Shown here in pieces: positions 2,144-29,330 of a stretch of 32,000 nucleotides of DNA. The stretch is from the NCBI GenBank assembly GCA_964480775.1, contig CAYZRF010000003.1, forward strand, positions 1 to 32,000, read 5' to 3'. This stretch comes from an uncultured Nitrososphaerota archaeon. GTDB taxonomy: Archaea > Korarchaeota > Korarchaeia > Korarchaeales > Korarchaeaceae. The notes below the pieces were generated by a model. It was not told where the DNA came from. It did no database searches and saw nothing but the letters and a program-made list of their open reading frames with translations. The stretch's first letter is position 1. Each line of letters starts with the position of its first letter. A program made the position numbers and the translations under genes.

Positions 2144-2623
2144 ATGACTGTCTTTCAAGTAATTCTCGGCAGAAGATCCATTAGAAAATATCTAGATAAG
2201 CCCGTAGAAGACGACAAGCTCTTAAAAATTCTTGAGGCTGCAAGATGGGCTCCATCTTCCAGAAATAGCCAACCTTGGGCCTTTGTAGTAGTTAAAAACG
2301 AAGAAACTAGGAGAAAGTTAAAGGAACTTGCTTATGGACAGGATTTCATTTTACAAGCCCCTGTAGTTATAGCAGTATGCTCCAAGAAGGGATCAAACTG
2401 GGTTAATCTAGGGTTAACTATGCAGAACATTTGTCTCGAAGCATATGAACTTGGTTTGGGCACATGCATAGTTGGGTGGTTCGACAGAGAAAAGGCAAAG
2501 GAGCTGCTAGGGGTTCCAGACGGATGGGAAGTAGCCTATCTTATCTCACTAGGCTATGCTGCAACGTCTCCTAAATCAACAAGGAAAAAATTAGAGGAGA
2601 TCACTCATTGGGAGCGGTGGTAA
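2144..2623 (+). CDS. Nitroreductase family protein
   Basis: The N-terminal RRSIRKY and APSSRNSQPW strings are typical of FMN nitroreductases. 159 aa, ATG start, TAA stop. Confidence 0.85.
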   Translation: MTVFQVILGRRSIRKYLDKPVEDDKLLKILEAARWAPSSRNSQPWAFVVVKNEETRRKLKELAYGQDFILQAPVVIAVCSKKGSNWVNLGLTMQNICLEAYELGLGTCIVGWFDREKAKELLGVPDGWEVAYLISLGYAATSPKSTRKKLEEITHWERW

Positions 2624-2678
2624 AAAGCATCAAAACGATTTCGGCACCAAATTCTCAAATCAAATGTTGTAGAGAAAC

Positions 2679-2688
2679 ACGCATGCGT
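2679..2688. promoter_or_regulatory. Perfect 10-bp palindrome ACGCATGCGT in the nitroreductase/OYE intergenic region
   Basis: Read directly. It extends to 14 of 16 symmetric positions (AACACGCATGCGTCTT). It is flanked by the 8-bp inverted repeat TCTCAAAT (2653-2660) / ATTTGAGA (2715-2722). Function unknown. Confidence 0.25.
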
Positions 2689-2736
2689 CTTATCTGCACT
2701 ACTCAGGTTGTTGTATTTGAGAGCAATCGTCAAACT

Positions 2737-2746
2737 GACTTAAGTC
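2737..2746. promoter_or_regulatory. Perfect 10-bp palindrome GACTTAAGTC directly upstream of the OYE gene SD
   Basis: Read directly. It abuts GGGAGG (2747-2752), with the ATG at 2760. Candidate operator; function unknown. Confidence 0.25.
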
Positions 2747-2759
2747 GGGAGGCAGGAAT

Positions 2760-3743
2760 ATGACATCCCTTCTTGAAAAGCTCGTTGTGAAAGGCCACGT
2801 TATTAGGAACAGGATAGTGCTTCCTCCTATGGCAACAGAGCTAGCTAGCGAGAGAGGCGAGGTCACTGACGCTTTACTCAGACATTACAAGCTTAGGGCA
2901 AGAGGAACAGGCATCGTTATTGTAGAGCACACTTTCATCTCAGAAGAAGGAAGGCGCTCAAAAAACCAGCTTGGTATTTACAGTGACGAACTAATCTCTG
3001 GATTAAAAAGACTTGCCAGAACAATAAAAGAGGAAGGAGCTACAGCGATAATCCAACTAAACCATGCTGGAGCTAAAGCTCCCTCTGAAATCATTGGAAG
3101 AAGACCTGTGGGACCTTCTTCTGTTCAAGTACCAGGTAGTGAAGAGATTTCCAAGGAACTCAGCCGAGAGGAAATAGAAGAAATAATTGAAAAGTTCGTT
3201 AATGCAGCACGCAGAGCAATGGAGGCAGGATTTGATGGAGTTGAGATTCATGGTGCACACGGCTTTTTGCTAAGTGAATTCCTTTCTCCTCTAACAAATA
3301 AGAGGACAGATGAGTATGGAGGTAGCTTGGAGAACAGAATGAGGTTGCATCTAAAGACTGTTGATATGGTGCGAAGGCAGGTGGACGACCTTCTTTTCTT
3401 CAGACTCGGGGTGACAGATTACATGGAGGGAGGTCTTACCCTCGAAGAAGGGGTGAAAGTAGCTATGACCCTTGAAAAACATGGTGTAGATGTTATAGAT
3501 GTTTCAGGTGGGCTTTGTGGATCAAGACCTCCTTGGACCGCTGAGGAAGGGTATTTCCTAAATCTATCTGAAGCCGTTAAGACTAAAGTAAGCGTTCCAG
3601 TAATTGGAGTGGGAGGAATAAAGTCTCCTGTCTTTGCGGATAAAGCTCTAAAAGAAGGAAAAGCAAACCTCATAGCTGTTGGCAGGGCATTCTTAGCAGA
3701 TCCAGATTGGGCACTAAAAGCAATTGAGGCTCTAAGCGTTTAG
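2760..3743 (+). CDS. NADH:flavin oxidoreductase, Old Yellow Enzyme family
   Basis: HGAHGFLLSEFLSPLTNKRTDEYGGSLENR is the OYE/NADH oxidase signature region. There is an N-terminal PPM motif and a TIM-barrel length of 327 aa. Confidence 0.85.
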   Translation: MTSLLEKLVVKGHVIRNRIVLPPMATELASERGEVTDALLRHYKLRARGTGIVIVEHTFISEEGRRSKNQLGIYSDELISGLKRLARTIKEEGATAIIQLNHAGAKAPSEIIGRRPVGPSSVQVPGSEEISKELSREEIEEIIEKFVNAARRAMEAGFDGVEIHGAHGFLLSEFLSPLTNKRTDEYGGSLENRMRLHLKTVDMVRRQVDDLLFFRLGVTDYMEGGLTLEEGVKVAMTLEKHGVDVIDVSGGLCGSRPPWTAEEGYFLNLSEAVKTKVSVPVIGVGGIKSPVFADKALKEGKANLIAVGRAFLADPDWALKAIEALSV

Positions 3744-3789
3744 AAATCTAACTTATCTCTTCACTAAAATATTGTTAATGAAAATGCTT

Positions 3790-4848
3790 CTAAAATGATA
3801 GGACAAACTCTGCTAATATCCTCGAAGTGTGAATTATGTCTCTTAGATCAGCTACCTCTACACCGCTGTGCATATATTTGAGAGGAATTGATAGAAGAGC
3901 CGTTTTTACCCCTCCTCTCGCTACTTGAATAGCCCAGGTATCTGTGCCTGTTCCGCGAGGGGATGGTTCTATTTGGAAAGGCGATTTGATTTTCTCCGCC
4001 ACATTTCTCAGTTTCTCCACGATAACCGGGTGATATATTGGACCAATAGCTATTGCGGGTCCTTTTCCTAGTTTTACGACCACCTTGTCCTTAGTAGGAG
4101 GGGTAACTGCATGGGTTACGTCTACAACGACAGCAGCATCAGGCTTAAGTTTGTAACCTATCATACTCGCTCCTCTAAGCCCGATTTCCTCCTGAACCGT
4201 AGCAACTACGTCAAGCTCTACTTTTAGCTCAGATTTTCTTCCAAAGACTCTCTTAGCAGCCAATATGATTGAGGCAATCCCAGCCTTGTCGTCGAAGGCC
4301 ATGCCAGTGACTTTCGTACCCAAAAGATTTGAGAACTCGCTCGACAATAGAGCATAGGTTCCTACTTCAATGCCAAGCTTTTCAACTTCTTCCTTATTAT
4401 CTGCTCCAACATCTATCAATAGGTCTTCGATCTTGATCTCCTTAGCTTGTTCCTTTTTTCTTAAATGAGGTGGAATGCTTCCTATAACTCCAAGAACAGG
4501 ACCTTTCTTACCTAAGATGAGAACCCTTTGTCCGTAAGGGACCGATGCATCCCATCCTCCAACCTGCTGGATTCTCAAGAAACCCTCATCATCAATGCTC
4601 TTTATCATAAACCCAATCTGGTCGATGTGGGCCACCAAAGCTACTTTCTTTTCAGCTCCCGTATTTAGCTTTCCAATGTGATTGAACCAATCGTCCACGT
4701 GAAATTCGTCCACATAGGGAGCTAGAAGCTTTCTTAGTACTTCACTAGCCTTTGATTCCGTCCCTGTTACAGTAGGAACTTCAACAAGCTGTTTTAAGAC
4801 GTTACTTGCGTCTTCAATTTCCTTCTCCTTTACATCAGACTTCTCCAA
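3790..4848 (-). CDS. M42 family metallo-aminopeptidase (TET/FrvX type)
   Basis: Metal-ligand strings VAHIDQIGF, FDDKAG, QEEIGLRGA and DVTHA are present. 352 aa. TTG start at 4846-4848 is preceded by GAGGGTG. Confidence 0.85.
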   Translation of the reverse strand: MEKSDVKEKEIEDASNVLKQLVEVPTVTGTESKASEVLRKLLAPYVDEFHVDDWFNHIGKLNTGAEKKVALVAHIDQIGFMIKSIDDEGFLRIQQVGGWDASVPYGQRVLILGKKGPVLGVIGSIPPHLRKKEQAKEIKIEDLLIDVGADNKEEVEKLGIEVGTYALLSSEFSNLLGTKVTGMAFDDKAGIASIILAAKRVFGRKSELKVELDVVATVQEEIGLRGASMIGYKLKPDAAVVVDVTHAVTPPTKDKVVVKLGKGPAIAIGPIYHPVIVEKLRNVAEKIKSPFQIEPSPRGTGTDTWAIQVARGGVKTALLSIPLKYMHSGVEVADLRDIIHTSRILAEFVLSF

Positions 4849-8697: not shown

Positions 8698-9387
8698 TCA
8701 GTTTTTTGATCTCGCTGAATTACATAGCGCTTTTATTGGACATTTATAGCATTCAGGCTTTCTGGATTTACAATATGTTCTTCCTAGCTTTATGAAGAGA
8801 AGATGTGCCTTTAGATAGTCTTTAGGCTTGAAAACATTCATTAAACTCTTCCTAACTTTTTCATACCCTCCCTCCTTGGGTGCAAGTCCAATTCTTCTTG
8901 AAACCCTCATGACATGTGTATCCACTGGAATAGTTGGAAATCCAGAAGAAAAAAGAAGAAGGACATCAGCTGTCTTTGGTCCAATCCCAGGGATTGATGT
9001 TAATTCTCTTCTGGCGGCATCTAAGGATTTTTCTAGGATCTTACTTAACTTTCCATCATATTTATCCATTATGAAGGATGATACCTTCTTAATCGTCTTT
9101 GCCTTCTGAGCCTGCAAGCCAGCGGGCTTTATGGCATCCATTAGCTCTTTAACACTTACCTTGGAAAGAGTCTCTGGTCTAACATCAAACCTAGATTCTA
9201 AGCGACTTAAAGCTGCCTTGGAATTCCTATCATTCGTATTTTGTGAAAGTATAGTAGCTATCAATATCTTAAATGGGTCCCCAGATCTCTTAGCAATTAA
9301 GGCCACAAACTCCTTATGTTCCAAGTAGAATTCTTTTTCGAGAATCTTTAGAATTTCTTGGGCTTTAATTCTGCTTTCACGAGACAT
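8698..9387 (-). CDS. nth: Endonuclease III (HhH-GPD DNA glycosylase/AP lyase)
   Basis: LSQNTND, the helix-hairpin-helix GIGPKTADVLL, VDTHV, and a C-terminal 4Fe-4S loop C-x6-C-x2-C-x5-C (CKSRKPECYKCPIKALC). Confidence 0.9.
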   Translation of the reverse strand: MSRESRIKAQEILKILEKEFYLEHKEFVALIAKRSGDPFKILIATILSQNTNDRNSKAALSRLESRFDVRPETLSKVSVKELMDAIKPAGLQAQKAKTIKKVSSFIMDKYDGKLSKILEKSLDAARRELTSIPGIGPKTADVLLLFSSGFPTIPVDTHVMRVSRRIGLAPKEGGYEKVRKSLMNVFKPKDYLKAHLLFIKLGRTYCKSRKPECYKCPIKALCNSARSKN

Positions 9388-9593
9388 CGAACATTACCCC
9401 AGTCTAAATTACCAAAATAATCTTCGAAGTCACTTTAGTGCTTCCTGAAAACTTAGAATATTTTATTAACCAATCCCGCTTTTTACGTCTGGATGGCGTT
9501 TAAAAAGTTCCCTTTTAGTGTGCTCAGTTTCTTAATGGTAAAAAGTTCTTCTCAACTAAAGATCGTAGCTAAATCATCGGCGAGGTATGGCGA

Positions 9594-12500
9594 ATGAGGA
9601 TAAACAAAAACATAGTAGTGATTGCATTCTCTTTAATTTTCCTCGTCTCACTGATCGCTTTTCCAGTTTTATATTTCAAGTATTATATCCCCCTGTTAGA
9701 CAAGATATACGACTTAGAAAGAAACCTTCTTGTCCTGGATGGGGGAGTAAAATACAAAGATTATACTCTATTATTTTGGAAGTTTAGAATACCTTATTCT
9801 GATGGTCTGTTTTACAGAAACATAATAGTAAGCTTTTACGGAACAATATTCAACGCGTTAAAGTCAATTCCTCTTGATCCAGGGATAGTAATCTTTGGAG
9901 CATTTTTGTTGAGAACGAAAAGCTTCCTATTAGCCGCTTTATCTTTAATCGTATGGGCAATCTTTAGCCATTATGGTCTCCTGAGATTAAGAGACAAATT
10001 AGCTAATAGGGGCAGAGGGAACATAGCAACAATTTTAGACCTACTAATTTGGAGGTATTCGCTTATCTGGTTTGGCATTATGGTAGTGTACAACACACTT
10101 AAGAGAAAGCCCAAAGAAAAGTGGGATATAAGATCGTGGCACGCTCCTCCTTTGTTCTATTACTCCTTGGTTTTCGCAATACTCTTCTTTTCTTTACTAA
10201 GGGGGGCAGTGGGTGTTATTTCAGCGGCTTCAGCCACACCTCCAGGGCAATTACCCAATCTGGAAGAGGGGATGTTCTTATACGCGTATTCACATGGATA
10301 TGACTTTAACTTCACTATGGACACAGCTAAGAAACTATACGTCATGCATTTGACAAACTTTGACGAATACCATAGGCTGGGATATGTCGCTGGAATAATA
10401 AAAGGAGCCATACCCTTTCTGTCTCTCGCGTACCCTGCATTGAGCGGATTGTTTTGGAGAATAATAGGAACGTTTTTCTTATGGCTTGCCTTTCTAGCTG
10501 TTCTTCCTGGACCCAGAGAAATAAATAGCTTAAAGCGATACAGGCTGGGACCTAGGCTTGCGGCTTTTGCTGTTTTAATTCAAGGCTTTAGAACCCTGAG
10601 GTTGTATTGGGGCCTGGTATTCTCTAACATGCTTGTTGGATATGGTCCCAACAGCCTCGATTTGGCTGAGACATTTGTAACACCGATTTGGAACCAATTT
10701 AAACTAAAGATCAATTGGTTTTGGTGGCTTGCAGCAATTATTATGGTGATCTACGTTGCTTTGCCACAAAGAGTGGACCTTGCAATATTCCAGAAGTTAT
10801 TTCCACTTAGTTCATGGCTAAAGAGAAGGCTTGGCAAGGAGGATTTCAAACAAATAGCCTCTTCAATATCTGAGGCTACTGTCGCCCTTGCTTTGCTGGT
10901 GCTGATGATAGCTCTAATTTCTGGTTACACGAACTTTTTCTTCAAACCAAATGTGGTCACGCCCGTTCAAGAGGATCTACAGGCCCACCCTCAGAGACTC
11001 AAGCCACTTTGGGATGTAATAAGAGACGTAAACAGATTCGTCTATGATCTGGAGAGCATAGAGTACTCTTGGGTATCAACTGAGTTCGAAAATCCTAGTA
11101 CAGAATGGATAGATTCTAACAAGTATTTGTTTGATGTAATGAGGGTGATAGACAAGGAAAGAGCATATCTTATATCGCGAAAAGAGATTGGACAAAGACC
11201 TTATGTGGTAATTCCCGATCCAGACAACCCATATACAATGAGAGAAGCAGATGCTGATTTCATAGTACTCAACATAGGAGGCAAAGAGGTTCCTCTATGG
11301 GTTGTAGAAGTTCCATTGAAGTACGGGTCTCCAGTGACCGATGATTTCTTCAGAATGAGGCAGTATTATACGCATAGCGATGTAGGATTTGTAACGATAG
11401 TGGCTGGAGAAGAAAATGTTACTGAAGCTGTGCAGGTTTTCAAGGAAAAGAGAATGTATTTTGGTGCCTCTAGAGCTTATGATGAGATAAAATGGGTGTG
11501 TAAAGTCAAAGGAGAGGAGATCTCTGAGGTTGGAAACGTATCTTACGATGGAAAAGGGATTGTTTGGATTTCAGCCCCTAAAATCTACTTTTTCGACCAT
11601 AGATATGCTGACATACTACTTGATTCAGGTCCAAGAGCCCTCCGAAAAACTAACTCAGTATTCTATTGGAGATTCAAAGGATATGAAAGGAAAAACCTGA
11701 CAATAGGGCTTATCCTTTACCGATCACTGCCCGAGAGATTCAACTATTACCTCATGCCTCTGGACAAGACGAACTACGATGAGTATCCTCTGCCTTTTGA
11801 TAATAGAACTGTGTATCTCATGTGGGGAGCCAAGTTTTTCAGCACGAGGAACATCCCCTTTGCAATAGAATGGAAAGTTCCAGAAGATGTGGCTCCCCTA
11901 ATTGATTATCCTGAACAAAGAGGAGGTGGCAGACTCGTTGCTTTGGCGCTTGGAGACATATACGACGGAAAAGTTGATATTTACCTTCCATTCAACGACT
12001 TCTTGAGCAATTACTTCAGGGCAGTTTATGGAGATCTAGTAAAAGCAGACTTTCCTGAAGAGCTGAAAAAGGGAGGCTTGAGGTATCCAGAAAAATACTT
12101 TCTTTACAGGCAGTATTTCGATTGGTACCTGCATGTTGAGGACGTTTCAACCTTTAGGAGTGGTGAAGACTTCTTCAGGCTCCATACCGCACCAGAAGGT
12201 CCAATTACCGAGCTTAGATATGTGATATATCCTGAAGGGTTTGTGGGCATATATCCAGTTGGAGTCATGGGAGCAAAAGGCCCAAACATAGGAGCTCTTT
12301 ACGTGGTTAACAACGAGTTTGAAAACTTTGGAAATGTCAGATGCTATAGATTTCCGATTAAAGACTCTCCGTTTCTGTTCTTTTCTCCGAGCAAGGCAAA
12401 GAGCAATATCTTGTCTTTACCAGAAATAGAGCAATACATCAGACTCAAGAACCCAATAATAGGGCAGATCATCCTTTACAAGTTGAATGGAGGTTACTGG

Positions 12501-12839
12501 ATGTACGTCCTTCCCTTTTACAGAGTTGGTGCGGGGGGTGTTGTACAAATAGTTAGAGTCTCGGTCCTCTTCGCACACTATCCTGTTGGAAGAGAAGTCG
12601 AATTTTATGTTGGTTGGGGTGAAAACATAGAAGAAGCTGTACTTACAGCATCGGCAAGGATGATGGGGATAGAAATGCCCGAAAACATTACGGAAATCGT
12701 GGACATAAAAGCTTTGGTGGAGGAGTTCTATAAGTATAAGGAGCAGGGTGACTTTATCAACGCCTGGAAGGTTGCTGAGAAGATAATGGAAATCCTAAGA
12801 GAGGCTGAGAGCGTGGAAATCAGAGGAAGGGGTGGGTAA
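9594..12839 (+). CDS. UPF0182 (COG1615)-like large membrane protein
   Basis: 1081 aa. The N-terminal third is polytopic. The C-terminal region follows the UPF0182 pattern as I remember it: YPEKYFLYRQYFDWYLHVEDVSTFRSGEDFF (compare YPEDLF..Q....YHVTDP..FY..D.W), then ..YRFP.., then IILYKLNGGYWMYVLPFY....VVQIVRVSV. Confidence 0.6.
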   Translation: MRINKNIVVIAFSLIFLVSLIAFPVLYFKYYIPLLDKIYDLERNLLVLDGGVKYKDYTLLFWKFRIPYSDGLFYRNIIVSFYGTIFNALKSIPLDPGIVIFGAFLLRTKSFLLAALSLIVWAIFSHYGLLRLRDKLANRGRGNIATILDLLIWRYSLIWFGIMVVYNTLKRKPKEKWDIRSWHAPPLFYYSLVFAILFFSLLRGAVGVISAASATPPGQLPNLEEGMFLYAYSHGYDFNFTMDTAKKLYVMHLTNFDEYHRLGYVAGIIKGAIPFLSLAYPALSGLFWRIIGTFFLWLAFLAVLPGPREINSLKRYRLGPRLAAFAVLIQGFRTLRLYWGLVFSNMLVGYGPNSLDLAETFVTPIWNQFKLKINWFWWLAAIIMVIYVALPQRVDLAIFQKLFPLSSWLKRRLGKEDFKQIASSISEATVALALLVLMIALISGYTNFFFKPNVVTPVQEDLQAHPQRLKPLWDVIRDVNRFVYDLESIEYSWVSTEFENPSTEWIDSNKYLFDVMRVIDKERAYLISRKEIGQRPYVVIPDPDNPYTMREADADFIVLNIGGKEVPLWVVEVPLKYGSPVTDDFFRMRQYYTHSDVGFVTIVAGEENVTEAVQVFKEKRMYFGASRAYDEIKWVCKVKGEEISEVGNVSYDGKGIVWISAPKIYFFDHRYADILLDSGPRALRKTNSVFYWRFKGYERKNLTIGLILYRSLPERFNYYLMPLDKTNYDEYPLPFDNRTVYLMWGAKFFSTRNIPFAIEWKVPEDVAPLIDYPEQRGGGRLVALALGDIYDGKVDIYLPFNDFLSNYFRAVYGDLVKADFPEELKKGGLRYPEKYFLYRQYFDWYLHVEDVSTFRSGEDFFRLHTAPEGPITELRYVIYPEGFVGIYPVGVMGAKGPNIGALYVVNNEFENFGNVRCYRFPIKDSPFLFFSPSKAKSNILSLPEIEQYIRLKNPIIGQIILYKLNGGYWMYVLPFYRVGAGGVVQIVRVSVLFAHYPVGREVEFYVGWGENIEEAVLTASARMMGIEMPENITEIVDIKALVEEFYKYKEQGDFINAWKVAEKIMEILREAESVEIRGRGG

Positions 12840-25864: not shown

Positions 25865-26179
25865 ATGCTTCGAATACATTTGGCAAGGAAGAAAGACTTC
25901 GTTAGAATCATAAGAGAATGCCTTTTGGAGACTAGAGGGAAAGTAATACTTTTTTGGAAGGAAAAAATCGAAGAAGAAAGTGAAGGAAGGAGAACAATTC
26001 TTCTCCTAGTTCCCATTTATTACCCAAACGTTGGAGAGTGGATTCTCTGGTGCTATAATCAAAAACTTGAGGAAGAAAGTCCTGAAGAAATAGCTAAGGT
26101 CTTAGCAAAAGAGATAGGAATAACGCATACAGCAGAGATAGTGAAGATATCTGCTAACGGAGAAGAAGTAGATGCTTAG
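25865..26179 (+). CDS. Hypothetical protein (104 aa)
   Basis: ATG-started ORF, Glu-rich, with no motif I recognise. Its TAG (26177-26179) overlaps the TAA (26176-26178, minus strand) of the GTPase gene. Confidence 0.4.
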   Translation: MLRIHLARKKDFVRIIRECLLETRGKVILFWKEKIEEESEGRRTILLLVPIYYPNVGEWILWCYNQKLEEESPEEIAKVLAKEIGITHTAEIVKISANGEEVDA

Positions 26180-26883
26180 AGAAGTTTTTCTTTTTTCAGA
26201 ATTGTTTTAACAAGCTTTCTAACTGCTTCATTTATGTTTTTTCCAGTAAGTGCGCTGGTATTAAGATAACCAACGAAACCAAACTCTTGAACATACTTCA
26301 TAGGATTTCCAGAGATTTTTACACCTAAATCGCTTTTTGTCCCTATAAGAAGCATAGGAACCTCGCCGAGATTATCTCTAACCTCTTTTACCCATCCTGG
26401 GACATCTCGAAAGCTTTTATCGTCCACTAGACTGAATGCCACAAAGCCACCAGCACTTCCTCTGTAAAAGTTCGGTCTCATAAGGCCAAACCTTTCCTGA
26501 CCAGCTAGATCCCAAATCACCAATCTAATCAGATATCTTTCAATAAAATGGTGTTTTGAGTAGAAATCCACACCTATAGTGGTCTTATAGCTCTTATCAA
26601 AACTTCCCAAGGCAAATCTTCTACAAAATGATGTTTTACCCACTCTTGGGTTGCCACACACAAAAAGCTTGATAGGTATCGTTCCTTTGAGGAGATTTAC
26701 CTCCCCTAAGATCTCTATGACTCTATCATGCCCGAAGGCACTAAGGGCTTTTTCATATAGGGACGTAAGAACGAAATCATCTAACTCTACGTCATCTCCT
26801 AAACTCATTTCAAAAATCCAATTATCTAATTGCTCCCCAAAGTAACTTTTAAGCAATTCTTTGTATTCAGCCAGCTTCGGCAA
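26176..26883 (-). CDS. Rab-like Ras-superfamily small GTPase with a ~70-aa N-terminal extension
   Basis: G1 GNPRVGKT (aa 77-84), switch I YKTTIGVDF, G3 WDLAGQERF, G4 GTKSD, G5 TSAL. Rab-family-like strings are IGVDF, RLVIWD and FYRGSAGG. There is no C-terminal Cys (it ends KKEKLL). TTG start lies 9 nt after AAGGAGGT. Confidence 0.85.
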   Translation of the reverse strand: MPKLAEYKELLKSYFGEQLDNWIFEMSLGDDVELDDFVLTSLYEKALSAFGHDRVIEILGEVNLLKGTIPIKLFVCGNPRVGKTSFCRRFALGSFDKSYKTTIGVDFYSKHHFIERYLIRLVIWDLAGQERFGLMRPNFYRGSAGGFVAFSLVDDKSFRDVPGWVKEVRDNLGEVPMLLIGTKSDLGVKISGNPMKYVQEFGFVGYLNTSALTGKNINEAVRKLVKTILKKEKLL

Positions 26884-27619
26884 GCTCTATAACCTCCTTG
26901 AGCCCTCTCACCTTCTTAAAATAAAAGAATGCCAAGAAAGTGAGAAAAATGAAGGAAAAGGAGGCTATCACCTCTTCAAATGGCTTAAGGACGGTGAACA
27001 GAGTATAGGTCTTCTCGCCGTATCTTATAAAGTCAGAAATCATTGAAGGAAGGGCAGCAATCTGAATAGAGGCTAAAACATCGTTTGGAAGGCCTCTTGG
27101 GAATAGAAGAACGCTAATACTAGCGAGAAAGAAGCAGATCAAATCAAAGGCAACATAACTCAATAGAATTGGAGACTGCTGGGCTAAGTACAGCATGAAA
27201 AGGGGCAGAAAAACAAGGACGATCTTGACAGATTTTCTTCCAGTAGCTGCAAACCATCTGACGGAAATCATCTTTGATATCCCATATAAGAGGCTCATGT
27301 ATCCTATCAAGTTAGCTAATGCTGAAATTTGATACAATCTAAAGTTTGGAGAAAGAAAGTAAAGAAGCTTTTGGGCAACTCCAGAGAACAAGACAAATAT
27401 CGCAATGGAAAGCGACATCACCCTAGCAGTTGATCCACTTGAGTGTAAAGTAGCAGTTAAGAGCCATAAAATCGCACCAATTGTGGACAGTGCTATGAAC
27501 AAAACAACTTGAATGATCTTTGATCCTTTTATAAGGAGAAAAAATTGGACCCCAGAGAAGGAAAAGGAAAAAAGACCGAGGAGGAAAATCTCACTGAAGG
27601 ATAGCGAAGGTCGCTCCAA
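26867..27619 (-). CDS. Polytopic membrane protein (about 8 TM), unknown family, middle gene of the GTPase operon
   Basis: 250 aa with eight hydrophobic segments. TTG start is preceded by GGTGGTG. The 3' end overlaps the GTPase start by 17 nt. Confidence 0.7.
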   Translation of the reverse strand: MERPSLSFSEIFLLGLFSFSFSGVQFFLLIKGSKIIQVVLFIALSTIGAILWLLTATLHSSGSTARVMSLSIAIFVLFSGVAQKLLYFLSPNFRLYQISALANLIGYMSLLYGISKMISVRWFAATGRKSVKIVLVFLPLFMLYLAQQSPILLSYVAFDLICFFLASISVLLFPRGLPNDVLASIQIAALPSMISDFIRYGEKTYTLFTVLKPFEEVIASFSFIFLTFLAFFYFKKVRGLKEVIELAEAG

Positions 27620-27629
27620 GGGGCACCAC

Positions 27630-28544
27630 CTACATCAGCTCTTTTACGGTTTGCCTTAACTTCCTTAAAGCCATTTCAAGGGTGTAACCCTGTCTCCTAA
27701 GGGCATCTATATCCTTTTGAAGACTCTTCACGGGTTCAGAGTAAAGCAGAGAATATACCCTAAGAAGAGCTCTATACTCGGGCTCTATAGAGCTTGGAAC
27801 ATAAGATATAGCGTCGGTTGCAGATCTAAGTTCACCTAGAGTCCTTAAACGCTCAATCTTTTGAATTACAGACTGTATATCGACTCCTTCCTCTTTAATG
27901 CCGAGGAAAACGATACCCTCGGATCCTATTGGAGCTAAAATAACTGGTCCCAAAGCACTTTTAATCTTCATAATGGCTCCGCTTTCTGCCATTGAGTTGA
28001 CTTTATCTCCAAATTTATCTTTGAGATCCTCACAGAACTTGATAATGTTCTTAGATGGCATGTTGCCTTTTGTGTGCCACCTATTCTCCCTCTCATCATA
28101 GAAACCGACAAAAGTAACTCCAGAGATCTTCGCTAAATCTAATCTAGCAAACTCTCCTAATCCAACAGTACCTAATACGATCTTATCTACCTCTTGTTGA
28201 AACTCTTTGGATGTCTCGGCACTAAGAGACTGTGGTCCCTCTCCAAACTTTCTCTGGAAAACCGTGGCTAGCTCTTCACTAACTTTTTCTGCAAGAGCCG
28301 GATCGAGCTCTCTTTCAGCATAAATAACGAACAGAAAATCGCCAGAATTATAAAACGATATAAAATCCTTACCTACAGAAAAATAGCCAGAACTAGTCTT
28401 TCCAATTTCCTCTACAAGTGGCATTATCATGCTTAGAATGCCCGCCGTTGCTGTCATCTGAGAATTTGTGAATGAGCCGTAGTTACGTCGAAATAGCACT
28501 ACGCCAGCATTTCTATCGATCACAAGAATGTCATGAACTGGCAA
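27630..28544 (-). CDS. Putative GTPase regulator: longin-like N-domain + Roadblock/LC7-like domain + helical tail
   Basis: Topology read from hydrophobic periodicity only. Residues 1-100 read as beta-beta-alpha-beta-beta-beta-alpha (ILVIDRNAGVVLFRRNY / ATAGILSMIMPLVEEIG / YFSVGKDFISFYNSGDFLFVIYA / PALAEKVSEELATVFQRKF). Residues 113-232 read as alpha-beta-beta-alpha-beta-beta-beta-alpha (KEFQQEVDKIVLG / FARLDLA..VTFVGFYD / SKNIIKFCEDLKDKFGDKV / AIMKIKS, PVILAPIG, GIVFLGIKE / IQSVIQKIERL). Residues 233-304 are helical. TTG start. Confidence 0.45.
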   Translation of the reverse strand: MPVHDILVIDRNAGVVLFRRNYGSFTNSQMTATAGILSMIMPLVEEIGKTSSGYFSVGKDFISFYNSGDFLFVIYAERELDPALAEKVSEELATVFQRKFGEGPQSLSAETSKEFQQEVDKIVLGTVGLGEFARLDLAKISGVTFVGFYDERENRWHTKGNMPSKNIIKFCEDLKDKFGDKVNSMAESGAIMKIKSALGPVILAPIGSEGIVFLGIKEEGVDIQSVIQKIERLRTLGELRSATDAISYVPSSIEPEYRALLRVYSLLYSEPVKSLQKDIDALRRQGYTLEMALRKLRQTVKELM

Positions 28545-28572
28545 TGATGTTCAATGTTTAATGATCTTATTG

Positions 28573-28581
28573 TAATTTAAT
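28573..28581 (-). promoter_or_regulatory. TATA-like box (ATTAAATTA on the minus strand) upstream of the GTPase operon
   Basis: It lies 28 nt upstream of TTG 28544, and no SD sits in between. This is consistent with a short-leader or leaderless archaeal transcript. A pattern match only. Confidence 0.25.
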
Positions 28582-28931
28582 TCTTTTGTTGGATTGGAAG
28601 TACAGCTTAATCACTTTAATCCAGTTTTGTTAATATATTTTTTCAAACAGAAAAAATTACTTTTTAGAAATCTTTTTCATAGTAGAGTCCCGAATGAAAA
28701 TAGGGGAAACGCTACACCTGGTTTTACTTGTTGGGTTCAACTTCGCTGCCAGCTTAAAAGATTTTAATTTTTAATTCACATTTAGTTCAAATAGAAAAAA
28801 CATTTATGTTCACTAACTGAGCAATGCCTTTTAATTCGAAGGCGAGCAACGCTAAGGGTTTTCTTCATCAAGTAATAAATTAGATATTTACCTGAGATGT
28901 TTATTTTCTATGTCCTGGTGTTGAACAATGT

Positions 28932-29330
28932 ATGCCTGAAAAAACTCTAAGAACGGGAATTAAGAAAGAGATTAGAGTTATGATAAGAGAAGAACATTCT
29001 GCGAAGTCTGTCGGTAGTGGAGATGTAAAAGTTCTTTCAACGCCATCTATGATAGCCTTTATTGAGGCAGTATCAAGGGATCTCGTCCAACCATATCTTC
29101 CGGACGGCTACACTACCGTTGGAACCCATGTTGATGTAAGACATCTTGCCCCAGCTCCCATAGGAAGAGAGATAGATGTAAAATCAGAGCTAATATCCAT
29201 AGATGGAAGGAAACTTACTTTCAAAGTCGAAGTGTTTTGGAATGAGAAAATTATAGGTGAGGGAAAACACGAACGGTATATAGTTAACTTAGAGCGCTTC
29301 TTAGACAAAATAAGAAAGAATATCACTTAA
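28932..29330 (+). CDS. Hotdog-fold thioesterase (COG5496 / FlK-like)
   Basis: HSAKSVGSGDVKVLSTPSMIAFIEAVS matches the h-tA..lGSG.l.VlaTP.mia.mE pattern of this family. 132 aa. Confidence 0.7.
   Translation: MPEKTLRTGIKKEIRVMIREEHSAKSVGSGDVKVLSTPSMIAFIEAVSRDLVQPYLPDGYTTVGTHVDVRHLAPAPIGREIDVKSELISIDGRKLTFKVEVFWNEKIIGEGKHERYIVNLERFLDKIRKNIT

Follow-up and report, generated by a model that had tools for sequence, protein, structure and literature searches.

A predicted longin-Roadblock protein with a helical tail is encoded with a membrane protein and a Rab-like GTPase in non-Asgard archaea

The stretch of DNA analyzed here (the window) comprises the first 32,000 nucleotides (nt) of contig CAYZRF010000003.1 from an uncultured archaeon of the Korarchaeaceae (assembly GCA_964480775.1). 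On its minus strand, at positions 27630-28544, it encodes a protein of 304 residues that is predicted to consist of a longin domain, a second domain with the element order of the Roadblock fold, and a C-terminal tail of three helices. The gene belongs to a conserved three-gene module, in which it is followed by genes for a multi-pass membrane protein and a Rab-like small GTPase. What is new is a longin/Roadblock platform of two domains and a helical tail that is an orphan by sequence and lies in a conserved three-gene module of archaea outside the Asgard group; the tandem architecture itself has precedent. The longin-Roadblock protein is probably a soluble GTPase platform working with the downstream membrane protein and the Rab-like GTPase, both as a regulator of nucleotide state and as a platform for membrane recruitment. 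By analogy with the Mon1-Ccz1-type regulators of eukaryotes, it most likely regulates the GTPase at the membrane or docks it there.

Predicted Structure of the Longin-Roadblock Protein

Two AlphaFold2 models of the protein were built. The first, from an alignment of five sequences, had a predicted local distance difference test score (pLDDT) of 62.8 and an N-terminal domain too poor for use. The second, for which four distant relatives were added to give nine sequences, reached a pLDDT of 81.0 with a predicted template modeling score (pTM) of 0.73. The first domain of this second model contains strands at residues 3-10 and 15-21, a helix at 28-47, strands at 52-57, 60-67, and 70-77, and two helices at 82-100 and 109-127, such that residues 3-127 follow the ββαβββαα order of the longin fold class, which is defined by this order around an antiparallel sheet of five strands (PMC3747258; PMC8833172). 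The second domain contains a helix at 129-137, strands at 143-150 and 155-158, a helix at 164-188, strands at 192-196, 199-206, and 210-216, and a final helix at 223-243, and residues 129-243 thus follow the αββαβββα order of the Roadblock class, which is a circular permutation of the longin fold (Levine et al. 2013, PMC3747258). On this order of secondary structure elements, the second domain appears to be the Roadblock permutation. Three further helices, at residues 251-267, 271-284, and 289-303, form the tail. The longin domain (residues 1-127) is encoded at 28164-28544, the Roadblock-order domain (residues 129-243) at 27816-28160, and the tail (residues 251-304) at 27633-27794, all on the minus strand.

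An earlier reading of this DNA from its letters alone (the sequence-only reading) had seen a β2-α-β3-α longin order in residues 1-100, an α-β2-α-β3-α Roadblock order in residues 113-232, and a helical tail after residue 233. The second model agrees with all three, placing the helices of the tail at residues 251-303, except that helix 109-127 passes from the Roadblock-order domain to the longin domain. This helix is the third helix (α3) of the longin fold and not the first of the Roadblock fold: in P0009, a longin-GTPase fusion protein described below, its counterpart is the helix that immediately precedes the G domain, and F115 and D120 are invariant in the alignment. Consequently, the Roadblock-order domain has a short α1 of its own (residues 129-137) and both domains are complete. 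The longin part of the protein is co-linear in the alignment with the longin part of P0009, and this alignment, the model, the Foldseek matches, and the sub-threshold Pfam matches are the evidence for the longin domain.

Conservation within the family is unevenly spread along the chain. It peaks in the β2-loop-α1 region of the longin domain (residues 15-51), where 12 of 37 residues are invariant (R19, R20, Y22, G23, S24, T33, A34, I36, P42, L43, E45, and T50). The Roadblock-order domain is the least conserved part of the protein, and in the helix that corresponds to longin α1 only a single residue of 25 is invariant. The tail, supported by the model and by its invariant residues, equals the longin domain in conservation, with 11 invariant positions (Y257, L261, Y264, Y268, L275, D278, L282, G286, L293, K295, and L296), and we propose that it is a docking or dimerization element, a function that we infer. 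An internal duplication giving rise to the two halves was also considered and rejected; hhalign assigned a probability of 26% to an alignment that was out of register, which is no evidence of recent copies.

In a Foldseek search of the PDB with the second model, the best single-domain matches were longin domains, which supports the fold of at least one of the two domains. Sec22b (1ifq_A/B) was matched with a template modeling (TM) score of 0.74-0.75 and a root mean squared deviation of 3.1-3.4 over 121-123 columns, and further longin matches were 2nut_C (TM 0.69), sigma-adaptins (up to 0.68), and VAMP7 (0.58-0.63), with a probability of 1.00 throughout; zeta-COP was also among the matches. LAMTOR chains were matched as well (5x6u_B, TM 0.61; 6ehr_B, 0.47), as was Gtr2 (4arz_B) with the first, five-sequence model, the Foldseek table giving in neither case the query domain that was aligned. 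For the whole chain, the top matches with both models were chains of Mon1-Ccz1 (9lol_B at 2.1e-6, 9rs7_A, 8jbe_C, and 7qla_A), BLOC-3 (8zwc_A/B), and CPLANE or Fuzzy-Inturned (7q3d_B and 9rs8_A).

The Gene and Its Relatives

The 304-residue open reading frame (ORF) is a real, conserved protein-coding gene. In the ORF list it begins at a TTG start codon (28544-28542) and ends at a stop codon at 27630-27632. Its full-length close relatives (P0001-P0004, L010, and L011) align with it from end to end at 71-94% identity, four of them at 71-91% and the copy on contig L010 at 94%, and distant relatives (P0005, P0006, P0010, and P0011) retain 30-37% identity over the full length. The relatives with a complete N terminus (P0003-P0006 and P0010) share a common start, MP[VI][HR]D.

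Two word-indexed searches served to collect homologues, together with a full HMMER scan that covered 1.8 billion representatives. The longin-Roadblock family proved to be very small, with ∼10 distinct sequences in collections of billions of proteins, all of them from metagenome genomes of Korarchaeia-like or other Thermoproteota. The contigs of the closest copies are named as Thermoproteota or Candidatus Korarchaeota metagenome-assembled genomes (the Guaymas isolates B15_G15 and B8_G17, and "Kor4"), and one distant copy comes from a genome labeled Nitrososphaerota. Two additional hits of the full HMMER scan (P0007 and P0008) were discarded as spurious, being long, repetitive proteins in which eight and six short stretches, respectively, gave the match. 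A last search, with the longin-domain alignment and P0009, returned a single fragment of 101 residues.

The sole significant relative outside the family is P0009 (E 3.4e-4 against 1.8 billion proteins), a protein of 298 residues that consists of a longin domain and, directly fused to it, an Arf-like GTPase. Its gene is located on L009 at 2522-3418, and a second Arf/SRβ-like GTPase gene adjoins it on the opposite strand at 3526-4080.

The Three-gene Module

The genes of the module are tightly packed on the same strand, in the order longin-Roadblock protein, membrane protein, GTPase. The membrane protein gene (26867-27619, minus strand) starts 10 nt past the longin-Roadblock stop codon and encodes 250 residues with ∼6-7 hydrophobic segments in a hydropathy scan. 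Its product matches no Pfam or NCBIfam family and is proposed to be the anchor or receptor of the module. The GTPase gene (26176-26883, minus strand) overlaps the end of the membrane protein gene by 17 nt and encodes 235 residues, comprised of an N-terminal extension (residues 1-70, nt 26674-26883) and a G domain (residues 71-235).

Pfam scored the GTPase as Ras (2.2e-37) and Roc (3.7e-26), and the best 60 matches shown in a comparison with PDB sequences were all Rab or Ypt proteins, including Rab6 (7.8e-28), a Thorarchaeota Rab (5.5e-25), Rab38/32, Rab7L1, Rab23, Rab1, and Sec4. Its motifs are GNPRVGKT, TIGVDF (a Rab-type switch I), WDLAGQE, TKSD, and SAL. Judged by these G motifs, TIGVDF among them, and by the PDB matches, the partner GTPase is Rab-like. 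The protein ends in KKEKLL, and the C-terminal cysteine that would serve as a prenylation site is absent. The N-terminal extension of ∼70 residues matches no family and is conserved, occurring also in L006 and L017 (MPK..(L/I)..LLK.YFG...D.W), and the P-loop reads GNPRVGKT in the window, GNAAVGKT in L006, and GNGGVGKT in L017.

The same gene order was found in all Korarchaeia-like copies (L001-L005 and L010-L012; 71-94% identity). The clade at 30% identity (L007, L013, and L017) also carries the module, which in L017 encodes proteins of 294, 267 (membrane protein), and 238 residues (GTPase), in that order. The membrane proteins of the window and L013 are homologous, with 28% identity over 125 residues (pairwise E 4e-10), and the GTPase gene with its N-terminal extension is retained in L006. 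What is most stable in the module is that the longin-Roadblock and Rab-like GTPase genes stay linked. The sequence-only reading had suggested a GTPase-regulatory platform without citing this context, and the role is strongly suggested by the conserved membrane protein and Rab-like GTPase genes.

A separate observation concerns four assemblies of the distant clade. Comparison of L013 6420-6560 (the same in L007, L008, and L018) with L017 2211-2809 revealed an out-of-frame deletion of ∼600 nt, through which the last ∼74 codons of the membrane protein are lost, along with the spacer between the two genes and the start and N-terminal extension of the GTPase. An intact P-loop-coding stretch (KLFISGNGGVGKTS), identical in the four assemblies, is left without an ATG, GTG, or TTG start codon. 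Either this is a recent inactivation or a +1 frameshift is needed to yield a membrane protein-GTPase fusion. The overlap of the P-loop stretch with the end of the membrane protein ORF had suggested such a "Rosetta stone" fusion, which was not counted as evidence because the comparison with the related L017 reveals the deletion.

On the plus strand, a convergent ORF of 104 residues (25865-26179) overlaps the GTPase stop codon with its own by 4 nt. It matches no family, is called as a gene of 101-104 residues in L001-L003 and L005, and is recovered by tblastn at 69-77% identity in L001-L003, L005, L010, and L012. It accompanies every Korarchaeia-like copy of the module, is conserved in that clade only, and is absent beside the distant copies in L006 and L007, which makes it a doubtful member of the module.

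Proposed Function and Alternative Explanations

In pairs, longin/Roadblock domains serve as platforms for a small GTPase, which binds to the face presenting one helix per domain, and such platforms act as an exchange factor, an indirect GTPase-activating protein (GAP), or a scaffold (PMC3747258). In the longin-Roadblock protein, family conservation peaks on the longin face that carries a single helix (the "top" face, β2-loop-α1), and this face is therefore proposed as the GTPase-binding surface. As in other complexes between longin/Roadblock domains and GTPases, it would bind the switch region. Pairing would occur through β-sheet edges, either between two chains via their longin domains, as in Mon1-Ccz1, or between the two domains within one chain. 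The tail, the 70-residue N-terminal extension of the GTPase, or both could tie the complex to the membrane protein, a tie that would replace the lipid anchor missing from the GTPase, and the nucleotide state of the GTPase would thereby be controlled at the membrane. Here we infer physical binding, the face used for it, the oligomeric state, and the direction of regulation.

Several observations weigh against this interpretation. The second AlphaFold2 model was built on only nine sequences, five of which are close relatives. No sequence model of any family in Pfam or NCBIfam reached threshold for the protein or for any member of its family, and NCBIfam was unmatched. The Pfam Longin model (PF13774) scored 16.1 bits against a gathering cut-off of 26.2 (E 0.011, residues 60-119), and sub-threshold matches to it were found in six of nine members (best E 0.004). 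Among the tri-longin models of Pfam (Mon1, CCZ1, Fuz_longin, and Intu_longin), the sole match was that of Fuz_longin_1 to P0005; at E 0.014 and 16 bits it stayed below the cut-off of 26.1, and it was in register with the domain start. Robl_LC7 (PF03259) was unmatched in every member at E values up to 1-5. Moreover, phmmer and profile searches of all PDB sequences with the whole protein, residues 1-108, and residues 106-246 returned nothing meaningful, and the profile of residues 106-246 found zero Roadblock proteins.

The whole-chain superpositions on the tri-longin proteins are poor (TM 0.25-0.33, root mean squared deviation 17-20 Å), and bacteriophytochrome PAS-GAF-PHY modules, which are tandem α/β sandwiches, score nearly as well (3e-5). 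Consequently, the tri-longin match indicates two co-linear α/β sandwich domains and no specific relationship; it is not specific enough for a claim of homology, and the link to the eukaryotic proteins is a structural resemblance only. Finally, the membrane protein gene is absent from L006 (37% identity), where a gap of 480 nt without a hydrophobic ORF (8942-9435; contig of 57.6% G+C) lies between the longin-Roadblock gene and the GTPase gene, and the membrane protein is therefore not indispensable.

The direction of regulation brings in a serious rival, which we nevertheless consider unlikely, namely a GAP of the MglB kind. The Roadblock-order domain and the longin domain as its pseudo-partner would bind the GTP form of the GTPase, position its own catalytic glutamine, and so switch it off. 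In prokaryotes, a Roadblock gene beside a small GTPase gene is the classic layout, and MglB contributes no catalytic residue of its own to its GAP activity (PMC4316618; PMC3747258). The switch II glutamine is kept in the GTPase of the module (WDLAGQE), and R19 and R20, at the end of longin β2, are both invariant. However, the partner GTPase is Rab-like rather than MglA-like, and the domain of Roadblock order, with its nearly unconserved "top" helix, is the part of the protein that has diverged most. Nor is there a GP motif where the β1-β2 loop ends, the mark of longin domains that have GAP activity (PMC12290439); the invariant G14 is followed by V, I, or M and never by P. A longin GAP of the FLCN, NPRL2, or SMCR8/C9orf72 type was rejected on the same missing motif and on the lack of a DENN-like region in Pfam and in the model. 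Action as an exchange factor or scaffold (Mon1-Ccz1, TRAPP, or Ragulator type) is somewhat more likely than MglB-like activation of hydrolysis, because the longin domain is conserved and longin platforms are mostly guanine nucleotide exchange factors (GEFs).

A more specific proposal is that the protein is a surviving, simple Rab exchange factor of the Mon1-Ccz1 type outside the Asgard archaea, a two-domain chain that would homodimerize through its longin domain and activate the Rab-like GTPase of its operon, with the multi-pass membrane protein as receptor. We regard this as quite improbable.

It is very unlikely that the protein is instead a longin adaptor that binds or sorts the membrane protein in the manner of the small adaptin/coatomer subunits or the SNARE longins, with the GTPase as an upstream recruiter and not the regulated target. 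Sigma-adaptins, zeta-COP, Sec22b, and VAMP7 are indeed the best single-domain structural matches, but these reflect the generic longin fold. The membrane protein gene immediately downstream and a highly conserved tail that could dock would suit an adaptor, whereas the neighborhood contains neither a SNARE motif nor another coat subunit, and in L006 the longin-Roadblock and GTPase genes stay together without the membrane protein gene.

A tandem PAS/GAF-like small-molecule sensor with a merely coincidental GTPase neighbor is the least credible explanation, for although phytochrome PAS-GAF-PHY chains are among the best Foldseek matches (6r27_C at 3.0e-5 and many others) and no sequence family ties the protein to longin or Roadblock, every single-domain match of good TM score is a longin or LAMTOR and none a PAS or GAF domain, the element order fits longin and Roadblock exactly, the sub-threshold Pfam matches are repeatedly Longin or Fuz_longin_1 and in register, P0009, the closest protein outside the family, joins a longin to a GTPase, the GTPase gene stays linked down to 30% identity, and an output domain is absent.

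Genomic Context

The module is separated by an A+T-rich spacer of 387 nt (28545-28931) from a divergently transcribed FlK-type thioesterase gene (28932-29330), and the promoters of both presumably lie in this spacer. Elsewhere in the window the context is that of an ordinary chromosome, with amidohydrolases, an M42 peptidase, an adenine deaminase, a SIS-domain isomerase, and a macro-domain-like ORF; no transfer RNA genes were found in the window. An ORF of 1081 residues on the plus strand (9594-12839), has only a weak C-terminal UPF0182 match (E 1.2e-7), and after it come genes for a beta-helix protein and a putative glycosyl hydrolase; this ORF and its neighbors are unrelated to the longin-Roadblock protein.

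Comparison with Known GTPase-regulatory Systems

The sequence-only reading held that longin and Roadblock folds normally occur on separate chains, such that their covalent tandem would be unusual. Precedents weaken this claim. In Mon1 and Ccz1, a canonical longin domain (LD1, ββαβββαα) is followed by LD2 of the Roadblock type (αββαβββα) and LD3 of the lamtor type (Klink et al. 2022, PMC8833172), and Asgard archaea possess longin-GTPase, GTPase-Roadblock, and longin-GTPase-Roadblock chains (PMC10933270; bioRxiv 10.1101/2020.10.19.343400).

The longin-Roadblock protein resembles the tri-longin RabGEFs (Mon1, Ccz1, Fuzzy, Inturned, HPS1, and HPS4) in having a longin domain and then a Roadblock-order domain in one chain, and in its gene partner, a Rab-like GTPase where the RabGEFs have Rab GTPases as their targets. 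It differs from them in the lack of LD3, a domain completed by helix αX, the model having three helices and zero strands after residue 243, and in being encoded by one such gene in the operon, whereas the RabGEFs are built from two paralogous subunits. Furthermore, no sequence model of their families reaches threshold here and the superposition has a TM of ∼0.3. The host archaeon does not belong to the Asgard group, and no prenylation site is present in the partner GTPase.

MglB-MglA and other prokaryotic Roadblock-GTPase pairs likewise place a Roadblock-fold gene beside the gene of a small Ras-superfamily GTPase, where a platform is expected (PMC4316618; PMC3747258). However, MglB is a single, homodimerizing Roadblock domain, whereas here a longin domain lies in front and a helical tail behind, the partner is Rab-like, a membrane protein is part of the unit, and Robl_LC7 is unmatched. 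The Asgard fusions link the same three building blocks functionally in archaea, and P0009 has their longin-Arf-like GTPase architecture; in the present protein, by contrast, the longin domain is joined directly to the Roadblock-order domain and the GTPase is separate and Rab-like, whereas descriptions of the Asgard fusions call them Rag/Arf-like. For the Asgard strain MK-D1, it is reported that GTPase genes generally do not share operons with longin or Roadblock genes (PMC10933270). Ragulator (LAMTOR1-5), finally, is also a Roadblock-fold platform that holds GTPases (Rag) at a membrane via a separate anchor subunit, and LAMTOR chains are among the structural matches. It is assembled, however, from separate single-domain subunits wrapped by the lipidated LAMTOR1, in place of one two-domain chain and a multi-pass membrane protein.

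In the literature searched, no description was found of a longin-Roadblock tandem in Korarchaeota or TACK archaea or of archaeal Mon1/Ccz1-like proteins, which is not proof of their absence, and no report was found of a chain that joins longin directly to Roadblock and shares its operon with a membrane protein and a separate Rab-like GTPase, nor of a system of this kind in Korarchaeia.

Significance

Longin and Roadblock domains are universal platforms for small-GTPase switching, and work on the origin of membrane traffic has yet to settle how the multi-domain regulators of eukaryotes arose from them. Asgard archaea have numerous GTPases and candidate regulators, mostly unlinked in operons, so that partners cannot be assigned (PMC10933270). 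Here, one longin-Roadblock chain, one Rab-like GTPase, and a membrane protein form a conserved unit in small, non-Asgard genomes. This is a defined system of three components, open to direct tests of binding, of nucleotide exchange or hydrolysis, and of recruitment to the membrane in the absence of a lipid anchor. If the resemblance to LD1-LD2 reflects common descent, the origin of the Mon1-Ccz1-type architecture would be older or wider than thought; if it reflects convergence, this domain order would be a favored solution. Should the protein prove to be a surviving, simple RabGEF, an LD1-LD2 core already paired with its substrate would be present in Thermoproteota (TACK) archaea.

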